DNA of 6,277 nucleotides from a virus, in IMG/VR virus record IMGVR_UViG_3300020041_000040, positions 1-6,277 of that record; one strand, given 5' to 3'. The notes beneath the pieces were generated by a model. The model ran no database searches, had not been told where the DNA came from, and saw only the letters and a program-made list of their open reading frames with translations. This document shows, piece after piece, positions 1-6,277 of this stretch. Made by a program: the position numbers and the translations under genes. How positions within the stretch are numbered: position 1 is the stretch's first letter; each line of letters begins with the position of its first letter.

Positions 1-7
1 ACTAGAA

Positions 8-54
8 GCCCATCGCGGCGTTTGAGCGATATACACCCGCCGCCCGCGTAGGGC
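8..54 (+). promoter_or_regulatory. GC-rich imperfect hairpin presenting the nonamer ATATACACC in its loop (candidate origin or ssDNA structural element)
   Basis: Hand-folded pairs are 8-11/51-54, 14-18/44-48, 19-20/41-42 and 26-28/38-40. That gives 14 pairs, all G:C, with a 2x2 mismatch, a C43 bulge and a 5-nt bulge (21-25). The apical loop is 29-37, atatacacc. A duplicate lies at 6164-6210. Confidence 0.45.
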
Positions 55-66
55 CTGATCGAAATA

Positions 67-112
67 TGGAGCGGAGCGACTTCCTTAGAGAAGCGTTCCG
101 CTTCGGTATTTT
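67..112 (+). terminator. Strong hairpin followed by a T-tract: candidate intrinsic terminator of the gene array, or an ssDNA origin hairpin
   Basis: The stem pairs 67-78 with 94-105 and 80-83 with 90-93, with A79 bulged and a 6-nt loop cttaga. This is about 16 pairs including 3 G:T wobbles. It is followed by ggtATTTTa (TTTT at 109-112). It is the first strong structure downstream of the last gene on the circle, and a duplicate lies at 6223-6268. Confidence 0.4.
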
Positions 113-130
113 AGCACGAAGGTGCGCAAA

Positions 131-152
131 GGCAGATTCTATCTGATCTGCC
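131..152 (+). promoter_or_regulatory. 7-bp perfect hairpin (ggcagat / atctgcc), 8-nt loop
   Basis: 131-137 is complementary to 146-152, with loop tctatctg. The flanking gcacg (114-118) and cgtgc (152-156) could form an alternative enclosing stem. Confidence 0.35.
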
Positions 153-157
153 GTGCC

Positions 158-178
158 TATACACCTCTGTATACATCC
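158..178 (+). repeat. Two adjacent copies of TATACAYC (a third copy sits in the loop at 30-37): iteron-like motif
   Basis: tatacacc occurs at 30-37 and 158-165, and tatacatc at 170-177. All three lie in the non-coding region. Confidence 0.4.
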
Positions 179-223
179 ACTTTTCCTAGATCTATTAGTA
201 ATGGATCCAGGACTGTTAATTAA

Positions 224-249
224 GCGAAGCCCCTAGTTGTGTGCGAAGC
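224..249 (+). promoter_or_regulatory. Two copies of GCGAAGC, the stable DNA mini-hairpin heptamer, 12 nt apart
   Basis: gcgaagc occurs at 224-230 and 243-249. d(GCGAAGC) is a characterised, exceptionally stable ssDNA mini-hairpin. Confidence 0.4.
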
Positions 250-254
250 AAAAT

Positions 255-284
255 CCGAGTTATCCTCTCGGTTTCTCCTTTTCC
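255..284 (+). terminator. Weak hairpin plus T/C-rich tract (possible weak terminator or insulator upstream of the promoter)
   Basis: ccgag (255-259) pairs with ctcgg (267-271) around a 7-nt loop, followed by tttctccttttcc. The stem is only 5 bp, so support is weak. Confidence 0.2.
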
Positions 285-341
285 TCGTCCATAAACGCAC
301 AACTCACACTCTACGGTAGAATCTAAAAAAAATAGTTTTCT

Positions 342-372
342 TTTGCAATTATGAATATAGTTCGTATATTTG
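342..372 (+). promoter_or_regulatory. Bacteroidetes-type promoter (-33 TTTG / -7 TAnnTTTG) driving the gene array
   Basis: TTTG at 342-345 is followed by a 19-nt spacer and then TATATTTG at 365-372, which matches TAnnTTTG. An A8 tract lies upstream at 325-332. An AT-rich leader without a Shine-Dalgarno sequence runs about 45 nt to the ATG at 422. Confidence 0.6.
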
Positions 373-421
373 CCCCCAGTTAGAAGTTACAACTATTATT
401 AATTTTTTAAAATTTACGATT

Positions 422-616
422 ATGCAAAAATTCATTATTTCAGTTAAAGAAAAAACCACTGGTCGTGATGCTATTCCGCCTTATATCGTTAATTCTCTCG
501 ATGGTCTTGGAAATTATTCTGAGCGAGTTTCTCCGTTGGGTCTTATTGTTATTGTGGATTCGATTAAAGAGGAAAATAAGTTTGTCGAACTTAAAACCCA
601 TGATGATGAAAAGTAA
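422..616 (+). CDS. Hypothetical protein, 64 aa (first gene after the promoter)
   Basis: The ORF starts right after the promoter and leader. Its codons end mostly in T, like the recognisable genes. The overlapping Leu-rich +1 frame (465-599) shows the usual off-frame artefact pattern, which supports this frame as the coding one. I recognise no motif. Confidence 0.6.
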   Translation: MQKFIISVKEKTTGRDAIPPYIVNSLDGLGNYSERVSPLGLIVIVDSIKEENKFVELKTHDDEK

Positions 617-689
617 TAATATTTGGAAAATTATAATTGGTGCTGTATCTGCTGCCCTAGGTTATATTCTTAATTCTATTGGTTTATGA
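600..689 (+). CDS. 29-aa single-pass membrane peptide (MMMKSNNIWKIIIGAVSAALGYILNSIGL): holin-like or SAR-like partner of the downstream peptidase
   Basis: This is the only open frame across 617-685. About 19 of the 26 codons after the ATG triplet end in T, matching the genome's coding bias. It has a Lys-containing N-terminus followed by a ~22-residue Gly/Ala/Ser-rich hydrophobic helix. Its TGA stop (687-689) overlaps the peptidase ATG (686-688) as ATGA. The start could be any of ATG 600, 603 or 606. Confidence 0.55.
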   Translation: MMMKSNNIWKIIIGAVSAALGYILNSIGL

Positions 690-994
690 ATTCTACTCTT
701 ATGGATTTCCTTGAGCATTTGTTATGCTTCAACTTGCATTTTACGATAACAAGCGCTAAACGTTCTGTTATTGAAAACAAGTCTGCTGGTGGTGTTCCAA
801 ATTCTCAACATTTGTTTGGAGAGGCTATTGATATGAAACCTTATGGTTCTACCACTTATGGCCGATTGCTTGAACATATCCATAATTATTCAGACAATAC
901 TCATGTATTTGACCAATTGATATTATATCCTACATTCATTCATATTTCATTTGGCAAGCGTAATCGTCGCCAAGTGATTGACAAACGTAAATAA
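686..994 (+). CDS. Peptidase M15 (Peptidase_M15_3 / LAS-type zinc D,D- or L,D-peptidase)-like cell-wall hydrolase, 102 aa
   Basis: ITSAKRSVIENKSAGGVPNSQHLFGEAIDM...LILYPTFIHISF aligns by eye with the family pattern ITSGYRS..N...GG...SQHL.G.A.D ... YP.FVHVD. The H-x6-D pair is H42/D49 (nt 809-811 and 830-832) and the distal His is H86 (nt 941-943). Confidence 0.8.
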   Translation: MNSTLMDFLEHLLCFNLHFTITSAKRSVIENKSAGGVPNSQHLFGEAIDMKPYGSTTYGRLLEHIHNYSDNTHVFDQLILYPTFIHISFGKRNRRQVIDKRK

Positions 995-996
995 TT

Positions 997-2832
997 ATGA
1001 ACTTTTCTCCTGATTTACTGAAAGCGGCTGATCATTGTCAGCATCGTTCGTTTATTACTAATCGTTACACTGGTGCACGCATTGCCGTGGATTGTGGTCA
1101 ATGTGATTATTGTATCCATAAGCGTGCTAAAAAGGCATCCATGCGTGTGAAGACCGCTGGAAGTGCATTTAAGTATTCTTATTTTGTAACTCTTACGTAC
1201 GACAACGAACATATTCCTCTTATGAACTGTAAGGTTCTCCATAGCGAATATGAGGACGTTGTAGGTATCTCAGGAGATATTCATTTTGGTGATGAACATC
1301 ATAAATATATCCCTGTTTCCGAATATCAATGTGATGATAGCTCCGCATTGCGTCATATATTTTTCGAGCAGGTACAGGGTACTGTTCCGTTTGACCGTGA
1401 GATTAAGGAGCATGTTCCTGTTAGGGATAATTGGTTTCTTAGTATGGATGCTATTCGTAGTTTTATCGGTAAAACGCAAGCCGTTGATAAAATGGACTAT
1501 CCCGCTTCTGAACAATACGGTCGTGATAATCTTATTCCCTTCCTGAACTATGTTGATGTTCAGAATTATATAAAACGCTTACGTAAACATTTATCTTTAC
1601 AATTAGGATCTTATGAACCGCTACATTTCTACGCTGTGGGTGAGTACGGACCCGTACATTTTCGCCCGCATTATCATCTCTTATTATTCACAAACTCGGA
1701 AAAGGTCTCCGAGGTTTTACGATACTGTCACGCTAAGAGTTGGAAACTCGGTCGTTCAGATTTCCAACGTGCCGCTGGTGGATCTAGTTCGTACGTTGCG
1801 AGTTACGTTAACAGCTTGTGTTCTGCTCCCTTATTATATCGCTCATGCCGCGCATTTAAGCCCAGATCGCGAGCGTCTCTCGGATTCTTTGAGAAAGGTT
1901 GCGATTTCGTTGAAGACAATGACCCTTATGCGCAAATTGAGCAAAAACTCGATTCTGTCGTTAATGGAAGAGTCTATAACTTCAACGGAATCAGTGTTCG
2001 GTCAACTCCCCCCATGTCGTATATCCGTACCTTATTACCCCGATTCTCGTCTGCTCGCAATGACGATGGTGTTGCGATTGCTCGAATTCTTCGCGCTGTA
2101 CACTCAACGCCAAAAAGAATTGCAAAATTCGGATTCATCGATTATAAACAGGATTCAGTTTTGAGTCTTGTTCGTGCTTATTATCAATATCTTAAGGTTA
2201 ACCCGATTTTATCTGATGATGACAAAATTATATTACATTCTGCTCGGTGCCTTACTAGGTTCTGCAACAGTTCTAGTGATGTCGATGTTGAGTCTTATAT
2301 TAATAAGTTATATCGGCTATTCTTATATGTCTCTAAGTTCTTCCGTAATTGGCATTTGCCTTCCTTCGGTTCTGATCTTAGTACTTACTCCAATCGTATT
2401 CTTTTTATCATTAAAACAGGCATAGAATATGAAAAGAAAGCAGATTATGTACGAATGTGTAATTCGTTGCGAATACAAGAAGCATGTGAATTCCCTCTAT
2501 TGCGATATTTTTACTTACCAGCCACAGGATGTGAGAGGTCAATCGTTAAAGAGGAAGAAGATGGAACATTTTCCACGTACACTATTCGAGACAGAATGGC
2601 AGGAATCAAGCCCACCATCTTACATTTTGATGACCCCCGAAAATTATTACTTTCCCCAGCTCTTTCTCGTTTGGTCGGACCATCCTTTAAAGCCTCGCAA
2701 CCTTCAAATTACAACGATATGTGCGACGATTTACAAAGGTGTCTCGATTTCCGTGCATCGACATACTGCCGTGATATGATTAAGCATAAGAAGCTTAATG
2801 ATGCTAATAATATATTTAATCGTATGGTTTAA
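997..2832 (+). CDS. VP4: Rolling-circle replication initiator, HUH endonuclease (Microviridae VP4 / gene A-like), 611 aa
   Basis: Motif 1 is FVTLTY (aa 63-68). Motif 2 is HYHLLLF (aa 225-231, nt 1669-1689). Motif 3 is the two-tyrosine YVASYVNS (aa 266-273), which resembles my recollection of the phiX174 gpA active-site region (YVAKYVNK). An N-terminal Cys/His cluster (HCQH...CGQCDYC) is typical of gokushovirus/alpavirus VP4. Confidence 0.93.
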   Translation: MNFSPDLLKAADHCQHRSFITNRYTGARIAVDCGQCDYCIHKRAKKASMRVKTAGSAFKYSYFVTLTYDNEHIPLMNCKVLHSEYEDVVGISGDIHFGDEHHKYIPVSEYQCDDSSALRHIFFEQVQGTVPFDREIKEHVPVRDNWFLSMDAIRSFIGKTQAVDKMDYPASEQYGRDNLIPFLNYVDVQNYIKRLRKHLSLQLGSYEPLHFYAVGEYGPVHFRPHYHLLLFTNSEKVSEVLRYCHAKSWKLGRSDFQRAAGGSSSYVASYVNSLCSAPLLYRSCRAFKPRSRASLGFFEKGCDFVEDNDPYAQIEQKLDSVVNGRVYNFNGISVRSTPPMSYIRTLLPRFSSARNDDGVAIARILRAVHSTPKRIAKFGFIDYKQDSVLSLVRAYYQYLKVNPILSDDDKIILHSARCLTRFCNSSSDVDVESYINKLYRLFLYVSKFFRNWHLPSFGSDLSTYSNRILFIIKTGIEYEKKADYVRMCNSLRIQEACEFPLLRYFYLPATGCERSIVKEEEDGTFSTYTIRDRMAGIKPTILHFDDPRKLLLSPALSRLVGPSFKASQPSNYNDMCDDLQRCLDFRASTYCRDMIKHKKLNDANNIFNRMV

Positions 2833-2850
2833 TTTTTAATTTTATTAATT

Positions 2851-4578
2851 ATGAGTGATTTTAATCCCCTTGATCGAGCGAGGATTTCTACGCATCGATC
2901 TTCATTCGACTTGAGTTCGAAGAAACTGTTTACTGCTAAGATTGGTGAGATCTTGCCATGTTATTGGCAGATTGCTATTCCTGGTAATAAGTATCGTATT
3001 TCATCTGACTGGTTTACCCGCACTGTTCCAGTTAATACTGCTGCTTACACCCGTATTAAGGAATATTATGATTTCTACGCTGTGCCGTTACGTCTGATTT
3101 CTCGTGCGCTTCCTCAGGCATTTACTCAAATGACGGACTATATGACTAGTGCTTCTAGTTCTACTACTAATACATCTGCACTTACCGCTGTTCCCTATGT
3201 TACTCAGAGCCTCTTTAGTCAGTTTCTTCAGACGGCTAATGCTGGTGACCAGGCTAATACTCGTGATGATGCTGGCCTCCCTATCGTTTATGGTTCTTGT
3301 AAATTGCTCGATATGCTTGGTTATGGATCTCTGATTGCTAATTCTAATACAGGTAAGGCTGCTATTACTGAGAAATATCTAGGTATTGACAACCTTGGTG
3401 ATGCTGACAATCCTTTGGTTTATCAGACTTCACAGACTGTTAATTCTCTTCCGTTCCTTGCTTATCAGAAGATTTACTATGATTTCTATAGTAATCCTCA
3501 ATGGGAAAAGCACAAAGCTTACGCTTATAATGTAGACTATTGGACTGGAACTGGCAATACTGGATTGGTTACGGACATGCTCCAGTTGCGCTATGCCAAT
3601 TATCCCAAAGATTATTTTATGGGTATGTTGCCTTCTTCTCAGTATGGTTCGGTAGCTGCTTTGCCTATATCCACTTTGTCTAATTTTTCTAATACTTCTA
3701 TTGTGACTCCTTCTTCTCAGGGAGTATTGGTTAATACTTCAGGTACTTCTGTTGCTCTTTCTTCTGTTGGTCCTGGGAATAATGCTCAATTGCGTTTAAA
3801 TGCTGACCTCTCCGCTCTCTCAATTCGTGCAACTGAATATTTGCAACGCTGGAAGGAAGTAGTTCAATTCAGTAGTAAGGACTATTCAGATCAAATGGCC
3901 GCCCAGTTTGGTATTAAAGCCCCCGAATATATGGGTAACCATGCCCATTATATTGGAGGTTGGTCTAGTGTAATCAATATTAACGAGGTTATTAATACTA
4001 ATCTTGATACTGATTCTTCACAGGCTTCTATTGCTGGTAAAGGTGTTTCTAGCCAGTCAGGCCATACTATTACTTATGACTGTGGTGCAGAACATCAAGT
4101 AATTATGTGTGTATACCATGCTGTACCTATGTTGGATTGGAATTTGACAGGCCAAGCTCCTCAATTGACTGTGACTGCTATATCTGACTTCCCGCAACCT
4201 GCATTTGATCAGCTTGGTATGCAAGCCGTTCCTGCTCTTAACCTTCAGAATAATCCTGGCCGCTCCGTTTCTGGCTCTCTTGGCTATAACCTCCGCTACT
4301 GGCAGTGGAAATCTAATATTGATACTGTCCATGCTGGATTCCGTACTGGTGCTGCTTATCAGTCTTGGGTTGCTCCTCTTGACGGTTGGCAAGTGTTAAC
4401 TTCTTCTGGCGCTTGGTCTTATCAGTCTATGAAAGTTCGTCCGCAACAGTTGAATTCTATTTTTGTACCTCAGGTTGATGCTACCAATTGTTCGGTTGCA
4501 TTTGATCAGTTATTATGTAATGTTAATTTCCAAGTATATGCTGTTCAAAACTTGGATCGTAATGGTTTACCTTATTAA
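2851..4578 (+). CDS. VP1: Major capsid protein (Microviridae VP1 / F-protein family), 575 aa
   Basis: Two blocks match conserved regions of Microviridae capsid proteins as I recall them. One is the N-terminal block HRSSFDLSSKKLFTAKIGEILPCYWQIAIPGNKY...VPVNTAAYTRIKEYYDFYAVPLRLI. The other is the central block LSIRATEYLQRWKEVVQFSSKDYSDQMAAQFGIKAPEYMGNHAHYIGG. Confidence 0.93.
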   Translation: MSDFNPLDRARISTHRSSFDLSSKKLFTAKIGEILPCYWQIAIPGNKYRISSDWFTRTVPVNTAAYTRIKEYYDFYAVPLRLISRALPQAFTQMTDYMTSASSSTTNTSALTAVPYVTQSLFSQFLQTANAGDQANTRDDAGLPIVYGSCKLLDMLGYGSLIANSNTGKAAITEKYLGIDNLGDADNPLVYQTSQTVNSLPFLAYQKIYYDFYSNPQWEKHKAYAYNVDYWTGTGNTGLVTDMLQLRYANYPKDYFMGMLPSSQYGSVAALPISTLSNFSNTSIVTPSSQGVLVNTSGTSVALSSVGPGNNAQLRLNADLSALSIRATEYLQRWKEVVQFSSKDYSDQMAAQFGIKAPEYMGNHAHYIGGWSSVININEVINTNLDTDSSQASIAGKGVSSQSGHTITYDCGAEHQVIMCVYHAVPMLDWNLTGQAPQLTVTAISDFPQPAFDQLGMQAVPALNLQNNPGRSVSGSLGYNLRYWQWKSNIDTVHAGFRTGAAYQSWVAPLDGWQVLTSSGAWSYQSMKVRPQQLNSIFVPQVDATNCSVAFDQLLCNVNFQVYAVQNLDRNGLPY

Positions 4579-4588
4579 TCTGTTTGTT

Positions 4589-5032
4589 ATGAGAAGTTTT
4601 GCTTATAAGAACCCCGATTGTATTAAAAATGAGGTTATCCCCGAATTGGTTGAGGATAATCCGTGTTATCAGGAATCTGTATATGATTCTGTGATGTATG
4701 ATGAAACTCCTGATGGTGATTTGATTCAGGTCGATATGACACAAATCCTGTTAAATCAGGAAAAATATCGCCGTTCGCTTGGTGATATGAACGTTCAGAG
4801 CATCCTAGACCAGATGCATCCTACTCAGTCTACCGTGATGGATGGTATGACTGATGCAGAACGGTTTGAATGTGTCGTTTCCCGACATTGTCAGACGATG
4901 TCTGAAAGGCAGGCTGTGTTACAACAGCTGGCTGGTGAGAAGTCTGAGCTTACTAAATATGCTGAAGCTATGTTGGCAGAGCAAAAGTCAGAGCCCGCTT
5001 CTGCGTCCGCCCCTGACGCTCCTGCTCAATGA
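4589..5032 (+). CDS. Acidic 147-aa protein between VP1 and VP2: candidate internal scaffolding protein (VP3-like) or hypothetical
   Basis: ATG 4589 lies 10 nt after the VP1 stop. The track ORF starts at 4463, but that extension overlaps VP1 and is Leu-rich off-frame junk. The protein is acidic with a low-complexity tail EPASASAPDAPAQ. Its stop overlaps the VP2 ATG (ATGA at 5029-5032). The function is inferred from position and size only. Confidence 0.75.
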   Translation: MRSFAYKNPDCIKNEVIPELVEDNPCYQESVYDSVMYDETPDGDLIQVDMTQILLNQEKYRRSLGDMNVQSILDQMHPTQSTVMDGMTDAERFECVVSRHCQTMSERQAVLQQLAGEKSELTKYAEAMLAEQKSEPASASAPDAPAQ

Positions 5033-6144
5033 GATTCTATGATATTGGAGAAAGCCCCTTAATGGGGCACTCCGAAAAGCATATTGCTCCTCTTGTCCTT
5101 GGAGGTATTATTGCTGCTGGTGCTTCTCTTGCTGGTAACGCTATTGGTGCATCATCCCAGAATAAGACAAATCAGACTAGTATTGATATTAATCGTGAGA
5201 ATAACGCATTTAATGCTCATCAGGCTCAGATTCAGCGTGATTGGCAGGAAAAAATGTGGGGAATGAATAATGCCTATAACTCCCCTAATGCTATGATTTC
5301 TCGCGGTCTGAATCCGTTTGTTCAAGGTTCTGCCGCTTTGGCTGGCTCTAAGGCTCCTGCTTCAGGCGGTGCTGTTGCTTCTGCTGCTGGTATGCCTAGC
5401 TTACAAGCATTTCGCCCTGATTTCTCGGATGTAGGTTCTGCTCTTGCTTCCATGGCTCAGGCTCGTGCTGCTATGCTTAACGCTGAACAGAATGCCTCTC
5501 TTACTCCGTATAAGATGCTACAGATTCTTGGTGATACTAATTATCGTAATATTGGTGTTGGCCAGTCAGGTTATTGGAATGCGTCTACTGGCCGTCGATC
5601 TGCATTGTTGGATCAGTCTAAGGAATATCAGGAGCTTAAGAATATGGAATTTGCTGGTCGTCTTACTTCTGCTCAAGAAGCACAGATTCTCCTTGATTCT
5701 GAAGCCCAACAGGTGCTTAATAAGTATCTTGATGAGCAACAACAGGCTGATCTGTTTATCAAAGGCCAGACCTTATCTAATTTGTATGCTCAACACTCTC
5801 TTACAGAGGCTCAGTATAAAACTGAGATGGCTAAGGCTGTAAAAATTTCTGCTGAGACCAATGGTCTTCGTATTAGTAATAAGATTGCATCTCAAACCGC
5901 TGATTCTTTGATTTATGCTAATATTCAGTCTAATCGTGCTCGAGGCTTATCTTCATTATGGGAATCTAAGAATACCAATGTGCTTAAAAATATTGAGTTT
6001 TCTAAAGATAAGGCTTTGCGTGATTATTATAAGTGGAGCTCTAAGTCTAAACAGAAGGACGTTGATTCTTATGAGTTGCGTAATGCTGTAGATTATGGAT
6101 CTAGGATTTTTCAAGGTATCGGTAACAGTATTGGAAGAAGGTAG
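5029..6144 (+). CDS. VP2: Minor capsid / DNA pilot protein (Microviridae VP2, functional analogue of phiX174 H), 371 aa
   Basis: It has a Gly/Ala-rich hydrophobic N-terminus (IAPLVLGGIIAAGASLAGNAIGA). This is followed by NAFNAHQAQIQRDWQEKMWGMNNAYNSPNAMISRGLNPF, which resembles the conserved VP2 N-terminal block of gokushovirus-like phages. A long Gln/Ala/Leu-rich, presumably helical region follows. An alternative start is ATG 5062 (MGHSEKH). Confidence 0.85.
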   Translation: MRFYDIGESPLMGHSEKHIAPLVLGGIIAAGASLAGNAIGASSQNKTNQTSIDINRENNAFNAHQAQIQRDWQEKMWGMNNAYNSPNAMISRGLNPFVQGSAALAGSKAPASGGAVASAAGMPSLQAFRPDFSDVGSALASMAQARAAMLNAEQNASLTPYKMLQILGDTNYRNIGVGQSGYWNASTGRRSALLDQSKEYQELKNMEFAGRLTSAQEAQILLDSEAQQVLNKYLDEQQQADLFIKGQTLSNLYAQHSLTEAQYKTEMAKAVKISAETNGLRISNKIASQTADSLIYANIQSNRARGLSSLWESKNTNVLKNIEFSKDKALRDYYKWSSKSKQKDVDSYELRNAVDYGSRIFQGIGNSIGRR

Positions 6145-6156
6145 GCATTCTTCAGG

Positions 6157-6277
6157 ACTAGAAGCCCATCGCGGCGTTTGAGCGATATACACCCGCCGCC
6201 CGCGTAGGGCCTGATCGAAATATGGAGCGGAGCGACTTCCTTAGAGAAGCGTTCCGCTTCGGTATTTTAGCACGAAG
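6157..6277. repeat. Terminal direct repeat, copy 2 (circular-assembly overlap)
   Basis: Identical to 1-121. It starts 12 nt after the VP2 stop codon (TAG 6142-6144). Confidence 0.95.

Follow-up and report, generated by a model that had tools for sequence, protein, structure and literature searches.

Microviruses belong to the most abundant phages in the mammalian gut, and to our knowledge the mechanism by which they lyse their hosts is obscure apart from that of the phiX174-type protein E. The described systems closest to the one considered here are microvirus peptidases of the Pfam family Peptidase_M15_3, which Roux et al. (2012) reported in 11 human-associated Alpavirinae and Gokushovirinae and proposed to be horizontally acquired endolysins, five of the 11 adjoining an unknown open reading frame (ORF) (PMC3394797). 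Kirchberger et al. (2022) described peptidases as recurrent lysis-associated accessory genes, explicitly leaving out overprinted genes (PMC9239249). According to the literature, the marine Occultatumvirinae and Amoyvirinae also carry M15 peptidases, and so does phiHBP1, the first cultured microvirus of Bacteroides (Bacteroidota) (PMC13064476). Here we analyse a complete-looking microvirus genome of 6,277 nucleotides (IMG/VR record IMGVR_UViG_3300020041_000040, positions 1 to 6,277; hereafter the window), in which a gene for a 102-residue M15 peptidase overlaps the end of a very small membrane-protein gene. From sequence comparison, a predicted structure and analogy with other phages, we consider it fairly probable that the pair is a translationally coupled membrane-protein/endolysin two-gene lysis cassette of a gut microvirus with a probable Bacteroidota host.

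The peptidase shares with the known Microviridae M15 genes its Pfam family, its virus family, the gut habitat and the proposed endolysin role. Unlike them, the 102-residue version in the clade of the window lacks approximately the first 40 residues of typical members, which are 130–160 residues long, and is always preceded by a coupled, conserved membrane gene that those papers do not describe. A first-pass annotation of the window, made from the sequence alone, had judged that a lysis or entry role of the pair would be mechanistically new for the family; for the peptidase, a claim of novelty does not hold, as the enzyme has been reported since 2012 as a proposed endolysin (PMC3394797) and GenBank relatives are annotated as “peptidase”. 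What is new is the obligate, coupled and most constrained membrane-protein gene, for which we found no description in the searchable literature, together with the evidence of overprinting.

A coupled pair of genes

The elements of the pair are as follows:

468..689 (+): membrane protein, probable long form, 73 residues, MLFRLISLILSMVLEIILSEFLRWVLLLLWIRLKRKISLSNLKPMMMKSNNIWKIIIGAVSAALGYILNSIGL, in the +1 frame of the upstream gene ORF64
606..689 (+): membrane protein, conserved core or short form, 27 residues, MKSNNIWKIIIGAVSAALGYILNSIGL, a predicted single transmembrane helix
686..689 (+): ATGA stop/start overlap of the membrane-protein gene and the peptidase gene
686..994 (+): minimal Peptidase_M15_3 of 102 residues, putative endolysin, 11.8 kDa

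The first-pass annotation had described a 29-residue ORF at 600–689 that ends in an ATGA overlap with a 102-residue ORF at 686–994, and had read the two as a holin/endolysin-style module. These coordinates are correct, and a survey of related genomes found the ATGA-coupled pair in every relative that could be evaluated. Among 80 relatives found through their capsid protein, 71 have the peptidase and the nine without it are partial contigs; wherever the upstream sequence is readable, the small ORF and its ATGA overlap are present. Searching IMG/VR with a degenerate DNA pattern of the helix gave 83 stretches, the listed contigs being 5.5–9.4 kb and almost all about 6 kb long, and at 84 of the 87 unique sites an ATGA-overlapping peptidase of 98–112 residues follows. 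The remaining three look like contig-end artefacts. At these 84 sites the membrane gene directly adjoins the peptidase gene, the adjacency to an endolysin gene that is expected of a holin. The peptidase retains its own ATG everywhere except in one relative (L005), which has GTG instead, and in the sister subclade of Dulem virus 257 the ATGA is replaced by a stop codon, three nucleotides and an ATG, with both ORFs in the same frame. The overlap in the window is consistent with translational coupling. The module reading is therefore borne out as a conserved, coupled pair of a membrane protein and an M15 peptidase; its holin component is an analogy, the membrane protein having neither a holin-family match nor a charged C-terminal tail.

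The membrane-protein gene

Three ATGs, at 600, 603 and 606, stand at the head of the small ORF, whose frame reads MMMKSNNIWKIIIGAVSAALGYILNSIGL and ends at the TGA at 687–689. The conserved start is the ATG at 606, which gives 27 residues; those at 600 and 603 are specific to the window genome. Thus the membrane ORF of the first-pass annotation is real, whereas its 29-residue start is not the conserved one, and a 73-residue long form is probable as well (see below). In 20 of 20 relatives found through the peptidase, an ORF ending ...MKSNNIWKI[IV]IGAVSAALGY[IV]LN[AS]IGL and a stop codon abuts the peptidase start, each time with the ATGA overlap.

Codon-position entropy over 617–685 is 0.28, 0.02 and 0.78 for positions 1, 2 and 3, respectively. 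Across 76 genomes, the ratio of nonsynonymous to synonymous substitution rates (dN/dS) of the membrane gene is 0.105 at a dS of 0.66, the lowest of six genes, the others having values, at comparable dS, of 0.186 (VP1), 0.213 (peptidase), 0.271 (VP4), 0.330 (ORF64) and 0.353 (VP2). The choice of genomes by the helix pattern slightly favours the membrane peptide in this comparison; the capsid-defined set agrees with it, the helix being ~85–100% identical while the peptidase drops to 59%. These data mark the small ORF as a genuine coding gene under purifying selection. It is unannotated in the GenBank relatives inspected and appears elsewhere just as an unnamed “hypothetical protein”, being skipped by most gene callers.

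Twelve of the 27 residues (W7, I11, G12, A13, S15, A16, A17, G19, Y20, L22, N23 and G26) do not vary among 62 unique sequences. Of these, G12, A16, G19, N23 and G26 fall on one face of the helix with a 4-3-4-3 spacing, a small and polar face that includes an Asn. The 22-residue core has a mean Kyte-Doolittle hydropathy of 1.62 (1.89 in the best 19-residue window), and 36% of the transmembrane helix is Gly, Ala or Ser. The product is thus predicted to be a small integral membrane protein that spans the membrane at least once. In the Dulem virus 257 and microvirus mar62 subclades, whose peptidases are ~46% identical, a diverged peptide occupies the same layout (e.g. MKSETKSKIWSAIIAAAVSLLTSIAQIFS and ...MKAETKSKLWAAIISALVSLLSNLANIL) and keeps the spacing of small and amide residues after the Trp. 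A search of 5.8 billion proteins with the membrane protein returned the same microvirus clade only, and the match of the sister-clade peptide to the “holin” family phrog_443 (E = 0.13) was not significant.

The peptidase

The Peptidase_M15_3 signature noticed in the first-pass annotation is complete: the motifs S23-x-x-R26, N31 and G35G36 are all present in the ORF at 686–994, as are S40-Q41-H42-L43-x-G45-x-A47-x-D49 and Y81-P82-x-F84-x-H86. Residues S23, R26, N31, G36, S40, H42, A47, D49 and H86 are invariant in alignments of homologues down to ~30% identity. The Pfam profile Peptidase_M15_3 (PF08291) is matched with 33.8 bits against a curated cut-off of 23.2 (E = 4e-8; profile positions 38–107 of 108), and PHROG 894, labelled “endolysin”, with E = 2.8e-13.

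An AlphaFold model built with 32 diverse homologues had a predicted local distance difference test score (pLDDT) of 95.3 and a predicted template modelling score (pTM) of 0.86. Its best Foldseek match in the PDB was 1lbu, the Streptomyces albus zinc DD-peptidase (E = 3.5e-4; root mean square deviation 2.5 over 84 columns), followed by further LAS-fold matches to VanY, ChiX, the L-Ala-D-Glu peptidases of T5 and RB49, the hedgehog N-domain and LdcB. In a HMMER sequence alignment to 1lbu, H42 and D49 stand opposite residues 154 and 161, which we take to be the zinc ligands H154 and D161. Sequence and model together thus predict a Peptidase_M15_3 enzyme, a zinc peptidase of the LAS fold, with an intact zinc triad of H42, D49 and H86. 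The highest query TM-score (0.64) was obtained with ChiX of the Serratia marcescens ChiW/ChiX system (PDB 5opz), likewise a small LAS-fold L-Ala-D-Glu endopeptidase. ChiX works with a holin-like membrane protein; it belongs, however, to a bacterial chitinase secretion system rather than to phage lysis, and is 12% identical in sequence.

The N-terminal segment of the M15_3 domain (profile positions 1–37) is missing from the match, the protein beginning at about profile position 25–38. Longer relatives of 130–160 residues carry 40–55 extra N-terminal residues, and the 102-residue form represents a shortened subfamily that is still confidently folded. It has no signal peptide and no N-terminal transmembrane domain, and its dN/dS across the 76 genomes indicates purifying selection. 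At E ≤ 1e-3 we found 1732 homologues, of which the top 120 are all 101–104 residues long (mostly 102), on contigs of up to ~6.6 kb. In GenBank, the records PP511534 (positions 1138–1512), PP511453 (1138–1512) and PP511322 (3998–4372) contain 124-residue coding sequences labelled “peptidase” or “hypothetical protein”, whose starts lie 63 nucleotides too far upstream, so that they cross the membrane ORF in another frame; they are probably mis-annotations. The 124-residue “peptidase” coding sequences of Dulem viruses 226, 238 and 243 were considered as possible fusions and rejected, as they are N-terminal over-extensions across the membrane ORF.

A probable overprinted long form

Upstream of the Met codon at 606, the membrane frame remains open for at least 53 codons in 75 of the 76 genomes, and a conserved ATG lies 45–48 codons upstream of it, at position 468 in the window. 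Given the ORF64 protein and the codon usage of the genome, simulation assigns a probability of ~1% to the +1 frame of ORF64 being open by chance; the same simulation matches the stop counts observed in the peptidase and VP1 genes. Codons creating a stop in the +1 frame are seldom used in at-risk contexts of ORF64 (11 of 1169 for xTA and 4 of 388 for xTG), compared with 35% xTG codons in safe contexts of ORF64 and 18–37% for comparable codons in at-risk contexts of the peptidase gene. ORF64 also has the lowest dS of the six genes (0.345, against 0.64–0.99 for the others). Because of this stop avoidance, the improbably open frame and the low dS, we conclude that a holin-sized product of 73 residues (468–689) is probably made in this clade, and both the 73-residue and the 27-residue forms may exist. 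Over 468–599 the third codon positions of ORF64 are the most variable, which speaks against the extension; the stop-avoidance tests outweigh this.

The long form would comprise an N-terminal hydrophobic helix (hydropathy 1.8–2.2), a basic loop, RLKRKISLSNLKPMMMK, and the C-terminal transmembrane helix. It is matched by 170 database proteins, all on microvirus-sized contigs and none informatively annotated. AlphaFold rendered it as one continuous helix with a pTM of 0.39, a model that is silent on topology. The share of T at third positions of ORF64, an excess of which would point to selection for hydrophobic residues in the other frame, is 0.60, vs 0.59 in the peptidase gene, and is uninformative. 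Several findings suggest that the long form may not be essential. Within the extension, variability is highest at the middle codon position, and a Met at or beside the short-form start is retained everywhere. In three of seven Dulem-257 genomes the frame closes 11–13 codons upstream of the Met, so that only an equivalent short form of 29 residues can be made there.

In size, in its two hydrophobic segments, in its small-residue face and in its possible dual start, the long form resembles the pinholin S21 68 of phage 21, a protein of ~70 residues with two hydrophobic segments, a small-residue packing face and a dual start. Pinholes, however, release only membrane-tethered signal-anchor-release (SAR) endolysins, whereas the peptidase of the window has no N-terminal transmembrane domain, and the two membrane proteins show no sequence homology.

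Homologues of the peptidase elsewhere

A tblastn search identified 179 phage records with a homologue of the peptidase, many of them microviruses and others tailed phages of Stenotrophomonas, Burkholderia, Brevundimonas and Synechococcus. Homologues in the tailed phages Siara and Burkholderia KS9 and ST79 are 37–44% identical. In the Stenotrophomonas phage Siara (gp026–gp030), the homologue lies immediately upstream of genes annotated as holin/antiholin, holin and o-spanin, and the Burkholderia phage homologues carry the annotation “endolysin”; the M15A endolysin of ST79 has reportedly been cloned and expressed, and was found on characterisation to be a peptidoglycan hydrolase (PMC5025407). 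With these M15 holin-endolysin cassettes the pair in the window has in common the homologous peptidase, the adjacent small membrane protein and the overlapping start and stop. It differs in having the reverse order, with the membrane gene first, and in that this gene encodes 27–73 residues and is overprinted in a single-stranded DNA genome of 6.3 kb; its product has no charged C-terminal tail and no holin-family match, and no spanin is evident.

The closest non-microviral homologues are free-standing proteins of ~130–150 residues on phage contigs of 20–30 kb, one of them with a portal protein gene just downstream. In tailed phages, M15A-type domains are found as well in fusion with tail or baseplate (Gp5-like) proteins. 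On a 37-kb tailed-phage contig (L182, positions 6001–6375), a 124-residue M15_3 protein, P0357, starts with an N-terminal transmembrane or signal segment (MTSNQIKSIWLVSVFIFISLMLSFAA...) that is joined to a short catalytic domain, and appears from its sequence to be a naturally occurring, anchored counterpart of the minimal enzyme. The M15 peptidase of phiHBP1 (PV598014) is a full-length protein of 134 residues, encoded after VP4 on its 3' side (reverse-complement 5832–6236), and in contrast to that of the window it has no such partner. In the phiHBP1 deposit six of the seven genes, including that of the peptidase, are labelled “hypothetical protein”, only the capsid protein VP1 being named; the genome also has an ORF64-like gene of 54 residues.

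Proposed mechanism and alternatives

If the pair is a lysis cassette, the following sequence of events may be envisaged. A promoter at 342–372 would drive a single packed unit made up of ORF64, the membrane and peptidase genes and VP4. The membrane protein, with its near-invariant helix (606–689) and in this clade probably also in the 73-residue form from the ATG at 468, would insert into the inner membrane and self-associate through the invariant small and polar face G12-A16-G19-N23-G26. On reaching a critical concentration it would permeabilise or depolarise the inner membrane, and the signal-less, cytoplasmic 11.8-kDa zinc peptidase, produced in a fixed ratio to the membrane protein by termination-reinitiation at the ATGA, would then reach the peptidoglycan and cut stem-peptide bonds, so that the cell bursts. 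The membrane partner is a candidate in this scheme because a peptidase without a signal needs a way across the inner membrane.

A number of points weigh against this proposal. Neither a functional test of any microvirus peptidase, of which the first-pass annotation likewise knew none, nor one of the membrane protein was found in the searchable literature. At 27 residues the short form is far below the size of any holin known to us; the charged C-terminal tail that holins typically have is missing, the sequence ending in ...LNSIGL within or at the end of the helix with no charged residue after K8, and the protein has no significant match to a Pfam, PHROG or NCBIfam family (best phrog_937, E = 0.2). 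The label “holin” is thus by analogy only. Holins are usually highly variable, and this is the most conserved protein of the genome, which is more in keeping with a specific protein target than with generic hole formation. In Gram-negative hosts, tailed phages require a disruptor of the outer membrane in addition, and neither such a disruptor nor a spanin is evident in the window genome. In the peptidase, neither an Asp or Glu three residues before H86 nor a His two residues before it is available as catalytic general base; the only nearly invariant acidic candidate is D76. Lastly, beside the peptidases of phiHBP1 and of distant microviruses (138–158 residues) we found no homologous membrane ORF, just unrelated small hydrophobic ORFs of uncertain reality, so full-length M15 peptidases occur without this partner, which is not universally required.

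A bolder version of the proposal, which we hold to be speculative and rather doubtful, makes the 27-residue helix a minimal lysis effector. It would be either the smallest known holin-type pore former, with the 73- and 27-residue forms as a dual-start pair of regulator and effector, or a protein antibiotic against a conserved inner-membrane target of Bacteroidota, in both cases working obligately with a miniaturised endolysin.

Among the alternatives, one would let the peptidase act on the wall and give the membrane protein an unrelated role, such as superinfection exclusion, membrane anchoring of replication or assembly, or regulation, the adjacency reflecting genome compaction. All genes of the window are indeed tightly packed and overlap, with two nucleotides between the peptidase and VP4 genes and an overlap of 11 nucleotides between ORF64 and the membrane ORF, and both the missing holin homology and the other microvirus peptidases without such a partner would suit this explanation. 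We nevertheless regard it as unlikely: the signal-less cytoplasmic peptidase must somehow get past the inner membrane, the two genes co-occur and are coupled without exception over two subclades whose peptidases are only ~46% identical, and holins neighbour homologous peptidases in tailed phages.

Somewhat similar in standing, and also improbable in our estimation, is that the membrane peptide alone is the lysis effector, a “protein antibiotic” of the single-gene-lysis (Sgl) type that blocks a conserved enzyme of host cell-wall synthesis in the inner membrane, with the peptidase only accelerating or completing wall breakdown. Known Sgl proteins can be as short as ~35–40 residues with one transmembrane domain; phiX174 E inhibits MraY, and LysM of a single-stranded RNA phage inhibits MurJ. 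The extreme conservation of the peptide (lowest dN/dS, 12 invariant residues, next to a peptidase that falls to 59% identity) and its invariant face with a buried Asn form a pattern expected of a specific protein-protein interface and unusual for holins, and in the sister clades that have no peptidase this slot is taken by different small ORFs for membrane proteins or lipoproteins, which suggests that such proteins alone may suffice for lysis. Like phiX174 E and the amurins of single-stranded RNA phages, this is a small single-pass membrane protein with a constrained transmembrane helix, whose gene is overprinted (as that of E is on D) in a tiny genome. Amurin phages, however, lyse their hosts with no encoded muralytic enzyme, whereas here an M15 peptidase is always coupled; the peptide never occurs without it, and the conserved stop/start coupling argues for a joint function. 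An amurin would make the peptidase redundant, yet the latter is under purifying selection (dN/dS 0.21), and the peptide has no sequence similarity to any known Sgl protein, the amurins included.

Less probable still is that the peptidase acts at entry, as a virion- or pilot-associated enzyme that opens the peptidoglycan locally for DNA delivery. The fusion of M15A-type domains to Gp5-like tail and baseplate proteins gives this idea some precedent. The product in the window is, however, a free-standing protein of 102 residues with no capsid- or pilot-binding extension and forms a coupled pair with a membrane protein; its nearest relatives outside the microviruses are free-standing as well, one of them in an annotated lysis cassette, and we know of no muralytic virion component in microviruses.

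That the two ORFs yield a single membrane-tethered SAR or signal-anchor endolysin through frameshifting or stop read-through, for which one could cite the SAR-like Gly/Ala/Ser content of the helix, the common frame of the Dulem-257 ORFs (separated by a stop and one codon) and the fused transmembrane segment of P0357, is very improbable and was rejected, since no genome joins the two ORFs, a slippery heptamer is lacking, the bases at which slippage would occur vary freely (Gly26 third position A42/T13/C6/G1; Leu27 first position T42/C19), the frame relation differs between subclades (−1 vs 0) such that no single recoding mechanism fits both, and the peptidase start codon is retained as described above.

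Genome context and probable host

The remaining features of the window, whose genes are all on the plus strand, are:

342..372 (+): Bacteroides-type promoter-like site, TTTG-N19-TATATTTG, about 50 nucleotides upstream of ORF64
422..616 (+): ORF64, a conserved 64-residue protein with no family assignment, outside the cassette proper and overprinted by the long form of the membrane gene
997..2832 (+): replication initiator VP4 (Pfam REP_ORF2-G2P, E = 1e-15; PHROG 942, E = 1e-35)
2851–4578 (+): major capsid protein VP1
between VP1 and VP2 (+): scaffold-like ORF
5029–6144 (+): pilot protein VP2

ORF64, whose third codon position is the most variable, has homologues in sister clades and in phiHBP1, always near VP4 and there without the membrane ORF; judged from these comparisons, it is a real gene. 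VP4 starts two nucleotides past the peptidase stop codon, and in some relatives the two genes overlap. The promoter consensus TTTG-N19-TATATTTG occurs once in the window, against 0.23 matches expected by chance, and 35 of 76 relatives have its exact form at the corresponding position; these make up 35 of the 58 matches on the plus strand altogether. The site at 342–372 is probably the promoter of the block of ORF64, the membrane protein, the peptidase and VP4, read as one transcription unit.

The closest entries in GenBank come from uncultured Microviridae sampled from dog, lemur and human, MG945488 being 88% identical. Compared with the Bacteroides fragilis phage phiHBP1, VP1 of the window is 33% and VP4 31% identical, placing both in the same broad lineage. 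Because this relative infects Bacteroides and the Bacteroides-type promoter recurs, the host is likely a Bacteroidota bacterium. A scan of 185,579 species genomes for prophages with a VP1 pattern gave no match. Peptidase-bearing JGI contigs of 14–17 kb (L035–L038) were considered as prophages and rejected, being head-to-tail concatenations of two or three different related microvirus genomes, that is, assembly chimeras.

Further overprinting is possible elsewhere in the genome. The +1 frame of VP4 contains long open stretches at 1613–2164, 2168–2425 and 2429–2779, of up to 185 codons, and that of VP2 one of 135 codons at 5444–5842; in VP4, xTA codons that would create stops are depleted in at-risk contexts (0.119 vs 0.349). 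These stretches may represent additional genes inside VP4 and VP2.

Sister clades without the peptidase, whose VP1 is 33–37% identical, have ORFs of 63–67 residues with a signal-peptide-like helix ending in ...SC, reminiscent of lipoproteins (L180, 4658–4849; L181, 4173–4370; L179, 6128–6331). That of L180 occupies the exact slot between the ORF64 homologue and VP4. By their sequence and position, these lipoprotein-like ORFs may be alternative lysis genes.

Implications

The membrane gene described here offers a concrete candidate for the missing route by which a signal-less microvirus endolysin would cross the inner membrane. Microvirus gene catalogues that skip very short or overlapping ORFs miss functional genes such as this one. 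A membrane-active peptide of 27 residues and a peptidase of 102 residues aimed at Bacteroidota could serve as tools. With three small genes in hand, the long-standing question of how these abundant gut phages lyse their hosts becomes directly testable.

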